Part shown: positions 54,282 to 60,179 of the stretch, one piece after another | How positions within the stretch are numbered: the first letter of the stretch is position 1 | Layout: each line of letters begins with the position of its first letter | Assembly (NCBI GenBank): GCA_010015805.1 | Contig: ML978125.1 | Span: 1,984,001-2,048,000, forward strand | DNA from: Rhizodiscina lignyota | Taxonomy: Eukaryota | DNA: 64,000 nucleotides | Direction of reading: 5' to 3' | The notes under the pieces: generated by a model | Databases searched by the model: none | What the model was told of the DNA's origin: nothing | Seen by the model: the letters and a program-made list of their open reading frames with translations, nothing else | Translations under genes and position numbers: made by a program

Positions 54282-54946
54282 ATGTTTGTCAACCGCGATA
54301 AGAGCGTGGAGCGGCGCGCCATCGTTAAATACCACGAAGAAACCTTTGAGGAGAAGGCTGTGAAAGAGCAGGCGGCGAGAGTCTTGGAGAGCAATGAGCT
54401 GCTCATCTGGCTCGCTATGAGCAGGAATGAGGTATGCTGTATTTCTTCTATTTCCTCAATCTGCGAATTCCAATCCTTTCTTTTCGATCCGCGTTCGTGT
54501 CGTTTGGCATTCGTACCCCAAGTTGTCCAGCCAGAGACGCGACGCGCTTCACACATAAATTTCACTATCATCTGAGCCATACCATTTGACACTTCTGAAT
54601 GGGCCATTGTACTACTTTCATCAACGCCTGACGCACTTCACAGTCGGTGCCACAGACGCGCCATTATTACGAGCGCCTCCTCGCCGGCTTCTCCCAGGAC
54701 GCCCGCAACGTCGAATGGGAAGATGTGTACGGCCCCGACTCAGAAGATGAAGCGCGCCTAGCGGTGCAAAGTTCGCGAAGCTCACTCGGCAGCAGCAAGT
54801 CGTCCAAGCAGAACTCTACTGCTGCGGGCTCAAGCAAGACCGCCAGCGGTGGCGGCAGTGGAGGCAGAAGCGGAAGCGACTCGAAGAAGAGAGGCAAGTC
54901 GGGAGAGCGCTCTCAGAGGAAGAGAAGGAGCGGTGCTGCTTCGTGA
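54282..54946 (+). CDS. Small fungal hypothetical protein (about 150 aa), basic Ser/Gly-rich tail
   Basis: MFVNRDK..QAARVLESNELLIWLAMSRNE|SVPQTRHYYER..; canonical intron about 54432-54643 joins the two ORFs in frame. Confidence 0.7.
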
Positions 54947-56000
54947 TGCGGCCGCGTGAGGTGATTGTGGTGAAATCGGCAGCTCGAGATCGAGGGACGC
55001 GTAGTGGTAGCGGTGAAGGCGTAACTCGAGCACCTTTCGGTTTTACGACAACTCACGAATTTCGGTTCATAGTCTACGTCAGGGACTAACGTGGGCAATG
55101 CAAGCAAGCAGGATCATGCTCATGGCATGCGGAGCACTGTTGTATATTCAAACTACCATCGGTGCTTCATGTCCAACTCAGCTGATACCGAGCTAATGCA
55201 GCTGAGAAATCCAGATCCGACGAAAGAAGCGTGCAAGCTCGCATGGCTTGCGTGTATCTCTGAATGGGGCCCAGGAGTTATCAGAGTCATGAACTAGAGC
55301 AGCTGGCCTCTTACGACTTCTACCGACCTCCAATAGCAACCTCAGACGTCGTTTCTAGACGCGTCATTCATGGAACAGCTTCTGACTACTGAGTTTGGAA
55401 ATATTTGTATTCAATAAAAACAATGGGCAACCTAACGTCACTTCAAGGGCGACTGGTTTGTTTCTAGCGATATCCAATGTCTTCCGACAGTCCAGGTCTT
55501 TTGATCGCCTGGCCACCTTTCCCCAATCCACTGAAACAGGCCCATATGCACTCGAAGCTCCAGGAATGACCCGAACAGAATACTAGAAGATTTACAATAA
55601 CACCCGTTGGTGCGCAGTGGCAATGGCCAACCTACATTCCTTCCTCCATCCCAACGTCTCTCCACCAAGGCTTCTTCTCCTCCTTCCCATCTCCACCTTT
55701 GACGCCAGTTTCTGGCATTTGGACCATTGCCTCAGCATCTCCCACCTGCCTTCGCTCGCTAACTTCCCAATCACTCTTATCCTTCAACTTCAACTTCATC
55801 GCCCGCCTCGCCATGGCAATGTTGATGTTCATGCTCTGCATCGATCGTTGCGCCAATCCTTGGGCAGGCCGGGTCGAGCCACTGTCGGTGCTGCTTCTGT
55901 CTCTGCTCGTAGTTGAAGCAGTAGAGGTTATGCTTTTGGTGTTATTAACGGAAGAGGCAGCATCACGACCCCGGCTTGCTGCCCTCATGACTGCTGATTG

Positions 56001-57621
56001 CTATTGTAGAGGTTCGGAGGAGGACGAAAGGCGGTTAAGGTGGAGATATACGTCTGTGCCATATCTATCACGCAGTCCCATCAGCATCTGTTCGAAATTG
56101 TAGAACGAGTTTGAAACCGAAAAGATTCTTACCCCTCCATACTGATCAATTTTAGATCCCCGCCGAAATACCGTGCATAAAGCCTACTGATGGGCAATCC
56201 GTACCCAAACCCAGCCATTGGCGCCTTGAAATCGCTCTTGTTGAAATCCGGATCCAGATTCGGTGTCTGGTCTACCGTGGTGTACATGTACGTCCAAACA
56301 AGCGGTATGGCGCTTCTCGGTATACCTCCTCCCTCATCTGATATCTTAATAGTGATATCCTCCTTCCCCTCTGCTACAATGACCTTCGTCACCGGGAACT
56401 CCTCCTTGTCTTGCCCATGTGTCTCCACTACTGCCCGCAAGCTGTTCTTCAAGGTCTCGAAAAGCATATGACTCAGGTGGCCGGGCACATACATGAAATT
56501 GATCTCCGGGTTACACACAAGCTGTACCTTAGGCGCATCGAATAAACCGTAGTGGTCTTCGCAGACAAATCTCGCGTTCTCGATCGCTTCTTGCGCAAGG
56601 TCGCGGACGTTCGTCTTCGTACATATAATGCCAACGTAATTCGGGTCTGAGCGGTGTCGCTGATCGGTGAGAGCGACGTGTTGGCCAATGAGCATACGGA
56701 TACCGATTCGTGACATGTAAAAACGATCGAGGAAGGCCTGTATGTTATTGTCGATCTGCATGCGTTGCCGCTTGCGTTTCCATTCGAGTATACCTTGCGC
56801 TGTATTGCACATTCAGTAAGCTTCTCCTACACAGGTTCCAGATATATCAGTGTAGTAGACATACCAACAGTTGTGACAACGCTATCGTGTCTTCGCTTGA
56901 TTTTCTCTAGCGTCTGCGCGAATTTCATATTGTATGCATTCAGCTCTGGCGGCCAATCTCCTCCGTCGTCTGCGGCTACGTAGTATCTCTTGCTCATGGA
57001 GCTTTTTCTATCTCCATTTCCGTTCTCGTTGCCATTTGCCTTGGTGTCTGACCGGTACTTTCCTTGCGGTATGCTTGGATTGTGGGTTGTCTGGCTGAGT
57101 ATACGAGAATGGCCACTGCTCTGTTTCGCTGGCCTTAGGAGACGCTTGCGGACTTCGGACGTGAGGGAAGGTTTTGGTAAAGTTGTAAGTTCCTGAATTT
57201 ATGAGTCAATCCATAGTGCTGAAAGCGAGAATCGCTACCCTGGTGGATTGTAACGCACCTCGAATGACTGCGCATACCAGTCCTTCACCTTCCTGATGCT
57301 CGGCATCTCATTCAATCCCTCTGGCAGGTCTCCAAGCTCCTGGACTCGATGCGCCAACCGTATTGGTAGTTCCTCAGAGAGGAATTGGCTCGCTCGGAAA
57401 AGAGTTCCTGTTCACCGTAATTGCTCGTTAGCCCTTTCGTCCGAACTCTCTCTCCCCTACCAAATATTCAAAGGCGGGTGAAGGTAGAAGAAATCTCCGA
57501 ACGCACCAGTACTCGGTCTCTCCCCGAACTGAACCATCTGCCTCAAACTCACACCGGTTGCCGGGAAGTTCGCATAGTGGCCGATGGTGTCCATAAGCTT
57601 CTCGGTTGCCTTCCACGACAT
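56001..57621 (-). CDS. Mitochondrial pyruvate dehydrogenase kinase (BCKDK/PDK family)
   Basis: MSWKATEKL..ATGVSLRQMVQFG|..SQFLSEELPIRLAHRVQEL..|..FYMSRIGIRMLIGQH..FETLKNSLRA..ISDEGGGIP..MAGFGYGLPISRLYARYFGGDL..MEG|YGTDVYLHLNRLSSSSEPLQ*. Confidence 0.95.
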
Positions 57622-58782
57622 CTTGACCAGCGATTGTGAGGCCCTGAGGCCTGTGCTGTACGTTCAATCCAGTGTTTGCGGTGGTAGTGTGACTATGAGG
57701 CCGGATTGGAGAGGAAGCGGAAAGGCTATGTCAGACCCCACCGTCTGGCGAGAGCTGGTGCTGTAGATTAGAATGTGGGAATGGATGGATAAAGCGAGGA
57801 GTAGGCTGCGTCACCCGTGGGAACAATGCCCCGGATCCAGAAGAATTGAGGCGATACGGGTGCAGGGGAATGATTGTTGACGGGAGTGCAAATGTGGAAG
57901 TGGTTATGCGCGGGATGGAGTCATATGGACGATTTGGCGGTGCAAGCTTTCGCTGCGGCAGCTGCCCCTCGCAAAAGCCCCGTCCAGCCGTGTCAAAGCT
58001 CTCCCCACACTCGGTTTGCTTAGGTTAACGTTCCTTTGACGGGCAACGGAAAAGCTGAGAGCCTCTTTTCCAAGCTGCGAGCACATGCAGCTTGCCTTGC
58101 CTCGCTGCGAAATTTCCTCTTCGCTCAGCTGACTCTCTCGACACGCTTCACCCCATCGCCCACGCATCGAGGAAAAAGTCACCCCTTCCACAGTATGCTC
58201 ACGGGCCAATTGCCTCTGCGATCGTCACTTGGCCGAGGGGCCCGAGGCTTTTCTGCTTGTTCATGAAACTCGGAAGAACGCGGAGAGCGCCGCTGGCCCG
58301 AGTTTCATGAACGGTCTTCCCCGGGTCCGAACGATACCTTCGGCATGCTATTGTGTTGAAAGCAAATCCATGATGTCAACAGAAATGAAGAACTTTAATT
58401 AGAAGACCATGTGTGGGCGTGATTTAAGGTCTTGTCGAAGCTCTCCTTTTAATCTATCATCCGGGAACGACGCCTTCCGATATGAGTTATTAACGTCGGT
58501 TACATGACACTGGTATGAATGGGTGTAGCGCGAAAAATTATATGTAAGTTTATATTATCGAGTGCACTAGAATAAGACTTGCTGTGGCCGGTCTATTCTC
58601 CATTGTATCCACAGACAAGTCCATTTGGTAGCTTAGTGTGCCGTCAAAAACCATAGATTACCGCGGAGGGATTTTGCTGTACCGTGACGCAGTAGAAAAG
58701 ACGATGATCCGTGTGATAATGTTCTTTTAAGACGCTACACAGGCCCTATCTTAAAGCCGATATACAACAGTGAGAAATATAT

Positions 58783-59700
58783 TTACAGAGTCTCCGTGAG
58801 CAGCTTGTTCATCTTGGCCATCTTCGAGGAAACGCTTAGGTCGATCGTCCGGTCGCCAATCTCAACGATCAGACCGCCTCTGATATCAGGATTAACCTAT
58901 AGATGCGTCAGCTTGATTTACTCCCTCTTCATTCATCTTTGACGTCTATCGTGATGAGATTCTTTTACCTTAGACACAACCTTCAACTTTTTGCCTTGAC
59001 CAACGTAAGACGACTTTGTGACAGCGCTCTCAAGCTTCTGAAGGACCTTGGGCTCCAATGGCTGTAATGTAACAATCAGCTCAATCTATCAATCGTTCCA
59101 CCAGCAATCGTGGAAAACGTACCGCAGCACTTGTCACCGTCAACTCCACCTCACCCCTGTGTGCGCTCACCAGCTCGGCATACTTCTCGCAGACTGCCTT
59201 GAGCGCGTTCAGCCTGTTGTGTTCCGCCAGAGTCCCAAGGAGGTTCTTCATGATGTCCCCTTTGTCCTGAGTGACACCCTTCAGAAGTTCTGCCACGATC
59301 TTCTGCTTGTCGCCGACCGTGAGAGTAGGGGCTGAAAGAACATTCTGGAGCTTGGGGTCCCTCTTGAACAGGCCATTTAGAGATTCGACGCTGCGGGCGG
59401 TGCTGTCGAGGGCGGATGTTTTAGCACTCGCGGTCCACTAAGGTTGCCGGAAGGGTTAGCATTGGGATGAGAAGTCTCAAAAGCGCGATGAAAAGGCCAG
59501 GGAAGCTTCATATACGAGTTCATATACTGAAACTGACGTACCAGAGCAGTGGCATATGTTCCATCGACGCCGTAGAGCTCAACAGGAGGGATCACATCGG
59601 AAGCGGCTGCGGCGTAGCTCCGGAAAACGGTGCGTGGAGCAATTGGCGCACGAGGAGTGGCTATCCGCGCTGCCTGCGCAATGGCTCGGCGGGACAGCAT
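58783..59700 (-). CDS. ATP5: ATP synthase OSCP (subunit 5), mitochondrial
   Basis: Arg-rich presequence, PPVELYGVDGTYATAL|..NLLGTLAEHNRL..HRGEVELTVTSA|..|VNPDIRGGLIVEIGDRTIDLSVSSKM. Confidence 0.96.
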
Positions 59701-60179
59701 ATTTGAAAGGAGTTGAAAGATGGGAGAGGAGTAGAGGAGTGCTTGTCGAGATGGTCTTCCCAAAAGAGCTTCATTGCTGTCAAACCGAAGTTCGGGTTTT
59801 TGGCTTACATAATGTCTTGGCACCAGATCGTCGAAGAGCGCTCAACAGCGGTACTTTGTAGCCTGGCTGAACAAAGTGCAAACTTGAGAATTGAAGAGAG
59901 ATTTTATTTGCAATTGACTAATTATTCTGCCAGAAGGCATCCGGAAGCCCACTTGTCCTCATACCTCATCCGAGGGACAGCCACCGGACAAGACGGCGGA
60001 GGGAGTAAGTAGGGGTAGGGAATATGCGATGAAAGTTTCCATGTTTTGATTACTTATACTCTAATATCACATTTGTGAGTCTTGATAGTGAGTTTTGGGG
60101 TATCGAGAGGTGTGAAAATAGAGCCTTTGCTCGAGCCTCCAAATCCGCCAGCGCACCCATAAAGACTGCAAACTATCAC

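Follow-up and report, generated by a model that had tools for sequence, protein, structure and literature searches.

A gene for pyruvate dehydrogenase kinase (PDK) on the minus strand of a 64,000-nucleotide stretch of the Rhizodiscina lignyota genome (assembly GCA_010015805.1, contig ML978125.1, positions 1,984,001 to 2,048,000; hereafter the window) ends in a stop codon behind which the same reading frame continues for 122 codons, and comparison with relatives indicates that this extension is almost certainly a translated and selected part of the PDK gene. The route to the resulting long isoform is, on sequence grounds, probably programmed stop-codon read-through. An earlier reading of the window, made without database searches (the sequence-only reading), had proposed a leaky stop of the CAR-YYA type and, from it, a long PDK isoform that carries a low-complexity linker and ends in a WW-containing segment, and the comparative evidence strongly supports that proposal. 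We infer that read-through is the bypass route, that the long isoform is the minor form and that the tail has a function of its own.

The open frame behind the PDK stop

As the sequence-only reading had claimed, the kinase ends EPLQ-TAG on the minus strand and is followed by CAA TCA, the frame stays open for 122 further codons up to a second TAG, and an open reading frame (ORF) of 118 amino acids (aa) lies in this same frame, with its ATG (55988-55986) 12 nucleotides (nt) past the first stop. The other two sense frames over the extension contain 6 and 7 stops. The TAG is no assembly slip, because a Logan contig (word depth 152), assembled from DNA run X1, has the identical sequence from 54500 to 58500; that run is possibly the window's own source data. 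Opposite the extension, on the plus strand, there is a 177-aa stop-to-stop ORF (window 55570-56103); the matching frame of the relatives described below contains few stops, though enough to break it in many loci (38 over 5096 codons), and the antisense ORF is a shadow of the coding frame and no gene.

Relatives were taken from metagenome loci fetched by the tail alone, a query that did not presuppose linkage to PDK; it gave 224 pattern matches, of which 107 were confirmed and the best 80 kept. Among these 80 loci, four end inside the tail, before the junction with the kinase, and 76 carry the junction. All 76 have the tail right after the PDK C-terminus, with a stop codon after ...EPLQ, and none has a sense codon at that position (0/76). 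From the stop to a conserved ...PWW..MEEG-x end, the frame is open in 74 of the 76 loci, the exceptions being the loci L074 and L077, to which we return below. Extension lengths take 27 distinct values between 77 and 141 codons, and since the same frame is kept throughout, the many insertions and deletions are all frame-preserving. In 54 distinct tails, which amount to 5096 codons, there are 299 stops in the +1 frame and 232 in the +2 frame.

The extension evolves as coding sequence. Pairwise ratios of non-synonymous to synonymous substitution rates (dN/dS; NG86) have a median of 0.29 over 80 well-occupied codon columns, with all 745 pairs of usable dS below 1, and the poorly aligned linker is looser (median, 0.73; 86 of 109 pairs below 1). 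A lone open frame of 122 codons is possible in a GC-balanced genome, and on that ground the post-stop frame could be a chance ORF in the 3' untranslated region; hundreds of homologues, a frame kept over so many lengths and the low dN/dS refute chance, however, and leave this explanation next to no probability. Counting the window, there are 59 distinct junctions, 32 with TGA as the stop, 25 with TAG and 2 with TAA. A stop that is kept in place while its identity drifts is the pattern that would be expected if the short and the long products were both needed.

A family of tails in the Dothideomycetes

Searched against 1.84 billion cluster representatives, the 122-aa tail gave 73 matches at E <= 0.001; each is a small ORF (48-141 aa), and in nearly every case the alignment reaches the C-terminus of the match. 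A profile search with the tail family returned 443 small ORFs. The named matches all belong to the Dothideomycetes (Aureobasidium, Friedmanniomyces, Hortaea, Teratosphaeria, Oleoguttula, Dothistroma, Elsinoe, Curvularia, Paraphoma, Pyrenochaeta and Pseudovirgaria), and five named relatives placed by taxonomy represent the Dothideales, Mycosphaerellales, Myriangiales, Pleosporales and Acrospermales. The family consensus can be written as Q-R/L-P-V-M-R-D-E-W ... S-Q-G-L-T-R ... L-x-L-A-S-R-A-M-K-L-K-L ... R-E-V-S-E-R-R-Q-V-G-D-A-E ... P-W-W-R-N-V-G-M-E-E-G-x, and the conserved C-terminus across relatives runs ...RRQVGD...PWWRNVGMEEGM. A Pfam scan of 74 tail sequences found no family, and the best score of an ESM Atlas search with the tail was 0.77, below the useful level.

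Among longer proteins, the tail matched ten PDK models at NCBI (P0002-P0006 and P0080-P0084; 473-587 aa), from ten Dothideomycetes, that fuse it to the kinase. These contain ten different junctions, each of which skips the stop and loses conserved flanking residues on one or both sides. Because the junctions all differ and delete conserved residues, they are evidently work-arounds of the gene predictors, which makes this a systematic mis-annotation. Elsewhere the tail is annotated as a separate hypothetical protein (e.g., P0024, P0078, P0120, P0141, P0155 and P0159).

Nucleotide context of the stop and RNA structure

The hexanucleotide that follows the stop is drawn from a small set, with CAACGA in 25 of the 59 junctions, CAATTA in 16, CAGCGA in 7, CAACTA in 5 and CAATCA in 3, the window among the last. 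CARYYA is the read-through signal of tobacco mosaic virus (TMV) and CARNBA that of yeast, and the former is reported to be about equally effective with UGA or UAG and far worse with UAA (PMC4132726). The stop usage of the relatives, in which TAA is rare, matches this preference. Of the checks on relatives that the sequence-only reading had suggested, frame-preserving indels and dN/dS < 1 came out as anticipated, while a conserved TAG-CARYYA did so in part: the stop varies among TGA, TAG and TAA, and CARYYA fits 24 of the 59 junctions, as against 56 for CARNBA. The CAA TCA of the window fits both.

Constraint at the junction is visible below the level of the protein. The second codon specifies Arg, Leu or Ser, yet its third base (position +9) is A in 98% of sequences, a constraint on nucleotides and not on residues. 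Upstream of the stop, third positions vary freely (major-base frequency, 0.29-0.83), and those just downstream are unusually fixed (CAA, 0.86; NNA, 0.98; GTC, 0.93; ATG, 0.97; AGG, 0.88). Past the hexanucleotide (window 55982-55991), synonymous conservation continues through GTC (53/58), ATG (49/58) and AGG (51/58), so that constraint reaches to about +22. Read from the alignment, the conserved element is a linear block of ~20 nt.

A stimulatory hairpin beginning shortly after the stop had also been proposed in the sequence-only reading. It does form in the predicted fold, but no better than chance and with no conservation: the 81-nt stretch that holds it has a minimum free energy of -15.6, compared with an average of -16.9 for shuffled copies (z = +0.50), and 135 of 200 shuffles fold at least as well. 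RNAalifold placed 0 consensus pairs in the 100 nt past the stop in 31 sequences, and Rfam gave no match over 55300-56300. Over -150 to +40 in 16 intron-free sequences, RNAalifold predicted a pairing of the P-M-A-G codons, ~150 nt upstream, with +9 to +21; its nine pairs are all invariant, and as invariant columns without covariation they may serve as a lead only.

Messenger RNA continuity and two exceptional loci

Several of the metagenome loci carry the whole PDK ORF without introns. Four of these (L018, L019, L037 and L038) are 98-100% identical to genomic loci (L021, L020, L034 and L040, respectively) and differ from them by three or four short introns, and because they are near-identical to genomic contigs minus the introns they can be taken as transcript-derived. 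From the last exon junction onward, across the stop and all of the tail, the four remain colinear with the genome; they then run on for 166-278 nt beyond the second stop, and they retain the TAG in their consensus. In those four relatives, then, the main mRNA evidently keeps the stop and has its poly(A) site no earlier than the tail's end. A poly(A) site ahead of the tail end had been named earlier as a finding that would speak against the long isoform; among the relatives this is not so, as the transcript-like contigs extend past the second stop, and the result applies to the relatives only.

The first exceptional locus, L074 (560-1060), has a TAG that overlaps tandem 5' donors (CA|GTAGGT|GTAAGT, 6 nt apart), and the CAR-NBA context is absent. 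The donors are followed by a stretch of ~212-218 nt, which has a branch-like CTGAC and a CAG acceptor that would join the conserved module in frame; if left unspliced, the kinase frame hits a TAA after a single codon and does not match that of the module. Its module also ends differently (..PPRWEEDDV). As read from this one contig, it looks like a lineage that swapped read-through for splicing, and if that is right, it argues for PDK plus module as the selected product. The extension of the second exception, L077 (1097-1380), meets another in-frame stop 20 codons in, a TAA at the position of a CAA in the relative L071, and the 3' context of the locus is the non-consensus CAACAA.

Weighing read-through against other routes

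Several observations count against read-through of a selected tail as the explanation. The loci compared are phylogenetically related, so that the counts are not those of independent events. The proximal motif of the window (QSAVMRAAS) departs from the family consensus. The additional stop of L077 may reflect decay or dispensability of the tail in some lineages, or else a polymorphism or sequencing error. The consensus contigs used to assess mRNA continuity could miss minor spliced or edited forms. Finally, the constraint on GTC ATG AGG G exceeds what a simple CARNBA model predicts and would also fit a conserved initiation site.

The last point leads to the explanation that the tail is a separate small protein started from the ATG 12 nt past the stop, by termination-reinitiation or from a transcript of its own, with the shared frame a by-product of fixed spacing. 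This ATG is retained by 49 of 58 distinct sequences within conserved synonymous sites (GTC ATG AGG), and gene callers often list the tail ORF as a stand-alone protein of 48-141 aa, in some cases as an NCBI hypothetical protein. Yet where the ATG is missing (9/58), the region before the next Met is under strong purifying selection: in the AUG-less locus L058, the 34 codons ahead of the first Met differ from those of L064 by 11 synonymous and 2 non-synonymous changes (dN, 0.027; dS, 0.572). Ahead of the ATG, the codons for Gln and Pro likewise show synonymous variation only, which is coding behavior. An invariant A at +9 together with the CAR triplet is predicted by read-through, as a termination context, and not by an initiation site, and the synonymous constraint upstream of the stop that a reinitiation element would be expected to impose was not seen. 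The link of module and kinase by an apparent intron in L074 also counts against a separate small protein, which is judged quite improbable.

A minor alternative splice that takes out the stop could likewise deliver the tail to the kinase, in the manner of known dual-isoform genes of fungi. L074 apparently splices its stop out, ten spliced fusion models have been predicted, and rare isoforms would escape a contig consensus. Between the last intron and the stop of the window, however, there is no frame-compatible GT donor, and the earlier observation that alternative splicing misses the tail frame holds, since the GAC|GTATAT donor leads to nearby AG sites in the wrong frame and no GT donor reaches the right one. 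The residues flanking the stop (EPLQ and Q-x-P-V) are conserved as protein, so both sides would be translated and contiguous, whereas the ten NCBI junctions are mutually different and lose conserved residues. The colinearity of the four transcript/genome pairs across the stop counts against splicing as well, and a minor splice form is accordingly rated as highly improbable. A micro-intron around the stop (GT...AG), conceivable in TGA lineages, was rejected as a candidate: it would be 14 nt long, has no counterpart in the TAG lineages and would not keep the frame.

A further way around the stop would be A-to-I editing of RNA with loss of the stop, as known in Sordariomycetes. The stop of the window is a TAG, and PMC13123824 reports that stop-loss edits at UAG codons number in the hundreds in Fusarium and Neurospora, one of them on a kinase, with a bias of fungal stop-loss editing toward UAG within hairpins. 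Against that bias, 34 of the 59 distinct junctions are TGA or TAA, no significant or conserved editing hairpin was found around the stop, and the conserved CARNBA context is no feature of editing. The TAG kept in the consensus of the four transcript-like contigs with near-identical genomic partners also counts against editing, and a PDK entry was not found in the four text supplementary files of PMC13123824. Editing is left with very little probability.

Read-through would then work as follows. A single stop, UAG in the window, would stand in a weak-termination context (CAA UCA, of the CARYYA/CARNBA type). Most ribosomes would terminate there and release the 440-aa kinase, while a fraction would decode the stop as an amino acid and go on through the next 122 codons to give an isoform of 563 aa. 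The tail so added would comprise four parts: a short proximal motif (consensus Q-R/L-P-V-M-R-D-E-W), degenerate in the window; a variable Ser/Thr/Gly-rich linker containing SQGLTR; a conserved module of ~60 aa with a basic helix (A-x-R/K-A-M-K/R-L-K) and the sequence E-V/I-S-E-R-R-Q-V-G-D-A-E; and a C-terminal P-W-W-R/K-N-V-G-M-E-E-G-M. This arrangement would be ancestral to the class Dothideomycetes and maintained across it.

The PDK gene and features of the window

The spliced model built from the window sequence has five exons that encode 440 aa with a single terminal stop (Table 1), separated by four GT..AG introns of 99, 66, 65 and 68 nt. Its product has 348-375 of 440 residues in common with six annotated Dothideomycete PDKs. 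Membership of the PDK/BCKDK family is borne out by a relative, locus L076, the product of which matches the solved PDK1-4 with E values of 1e-73 to 1e-80, and precomputed annotations place PF10436 and PF02518 (the N-terminal helical domain and HATPase_c) on all fused relatives. At the other end of the protein, only ~9 fungal residues precede the start of the alignment to solved mammalian PDKs (L076 product; chain positions 17-26), and no long N-terminal presequence is evident (L076 product, residues 1-10; window PDK N-terminus, 57621-57590). Upstream of PDK on the same strand, two adjoining stop-to-stop ORFs of 118 and 154 aa (59081-59841, minus strand) are probably one intron-containing gene.

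Table 1. Coordinates, in the window, of the PDK gene and of the elements around its stop codon.
Feature	Position	Strand	Basis or remark
PDK exon 1	57507..57621	-	ATG at 57621-57619; next intron GTGCGT...CAG
PDK exon 2	57259..57407	-	Spliced gene model
PDK exon 3	56865..57192	-	Spliced gene model
PDK exon 4, catalytic domain	56133..56799	-	Gene model; relatives homologous to solved PDK1-4
PDK exon 5, encodes ...YGTDVYLHLNRLSSSSEPLQ	56004..56064 (to 56001 with stop)	-	Peptide nearly invariant in 74 loci
Putative leaky stop TAG, end of short isoform	56001..56003	-	After ...EPLQ; stop in all junction-carrying relatives
3' context CAA TCA GCA GTC ATG AGG G	55982..56000	-	First six bases fit CARYYA and CARNBA; synonymous constraint in relatives
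Hairpin GGCAGCA/TGCTGCC of the sequence-only reading	55956..55983	-	Forms in fold; not significant, not conserved
Predicted read-through extension, 122 codons (P0001)	55635..56000	-	Homologues, frame conservation, dN/dS
QGLAQR, window version of the SQGLTR motif in the variable linker	55845..55862	-	Family consensus
Conserved C-terminal module ..AMARRAMKLKLK..WEVSERRQVGDAEAMV..PWWRDVGMEEGM	55635..55841	-	R83, V86 and W113 invariant
Second stop TAG, end of predicted 563-aa long isoform	55632..55634	-	Window sequence

Structure and possible function of the tail

An AlphaFold2 model of the tail alone is mostly of low confidence, with a mean predicted local distance difference test (pLDDT) score of 58, one helix at residues 56-68 (S-M-N-I-N-I-A-M-A-R-R-A-M) and the best confidence at the P-W-W end. 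The model of the full read-through product, made from a 50-row alignment, is too poor for use (mean pLDDT, 44). On these predictions the tail may be described as a disordered arm with three or four short conserved motifs.

In mammals, the C-terminal tail of PDK crosses to the partner subunit of the dimer and contributes to the binding of lipoyl domains. The fungal extension is alike in position: the alignment of the fungal kinase with PDK2, PDK3 and PDK4 ends at ...LSSSSE (368/407, 379/419 and 354/394), past which the mammalian chains have ~39-40 more residues and the fungal short form 3-4 before the extension starts. It is unlike in that the mammalian tail is encoded before the stop, and a phmmer search of junction plus tail against the PDB found no similarity to mammalian PDK tails, even at E = 10, so that homology is not shown. 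That the tail is a functional counterpart of the mammalian one, a disordered docking arm deciding whether the kinase dimer engages the E2/lipoyl scaffold, is on this analogy a doubtful though conceivable proposition. Put more generally, and with low confidence, the tail may be a conditional, mostly disordered docking tail that alters how the kinase dimer engages the pyruvate dehydrogenase (PDH) complex. Candidate roles would include docking to E2 or to the kinase dimer as well as targeting and turnover.

Comparison with known systems

Type-I read-through, with CARYYA in TMV and CARNBA in yeast, resembles the PDK case in having a single stop followed by CAR-NBA, in needing no 3' structure, and in the stops used, UGA and UAG being common and UAA rare. 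It is unlike the PDK case in that here a cellular gene of filamentous fungi is concerned, the identity of the stop shifts by lineage, and constraint extends to about +22. Structure-stimulated read-through goes with a stable, conserved 3' structure, of which the analyses above gave no sign.

Dual-isoform peroxisomal targeting in fungi has reportedly been described by Freitag et al. in 2012, as cited in PMC4207609. Fungal dual-isoform enzymes gain cryptic peroxisomal targeting by read-through or by alternative splicing (Stiebler et al. 2014, PMC4207609). These cases are like PDK in that proteins of fungal central metabolism have a conserved, functional C-terminal extension behind a stop, reached by read-through or splicing depending on lineage, to which L074 may be compared. 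They differ in that their context is UGA CUA(G) and their extension carries a short tripeptide, the type 1 peroxisomal targeting signal (PTS1), whereas PDK has CARNBA, an extension of 77-141 aa with a module of ~60 aa, and a ...MEEGM end that is not PTS1-like. The term 'pyruvate dehydrogenase' has 0 occurrences in PMC4207609.

The A-to-I editing of DBF2 in Sordariomycetes, as described in PMC13123824, likewise puts a largely disordered C-terminal extension on a kinase of filamentous ascomycetes by bypassing a stop without a change in DNA. That editing is specific to UAG, embedded in hairpins and specific to the sexual stage, whereas in PDK the commonest stop is TGA and there is no hairpin.

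Significance

No read-through or stop-bridging extension of a fungal PDK was found described in the full-text literature, the coverage of which excludes most subscription journals. To our knowledge, fungi have few read-through genes that are both well supported and evolutionarily conserved, and the majority of those known add only a three-residue peroxisomal signal. The PDK case would add a conserved tail of ~60-140 residues to the kinase that gates the entry of carbon into the tricarboxylic acid cycle, and would serve as a model for CARNBA-type read-through in filamentous fungi. For annotation, the consequence is invented stop-bridging junctions in ten NCBI models and orphan hypothetical proteins elsewhere.

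The Dothideomycetes are the largest class of ascomycetes and include many crop pathogens as well as extremotolerant black yeasts. If the tail does act on the PDH complex, termination efficiency, as determined by release-factor state, stress or nutrient status, would set the strength with which the complex is switched off, and at least one lineage would have turned the same switch into a decision of alternative splicing. The gene would thereby offer a natural, testable link between the fidelity of translation termination and central carbon metabolism.

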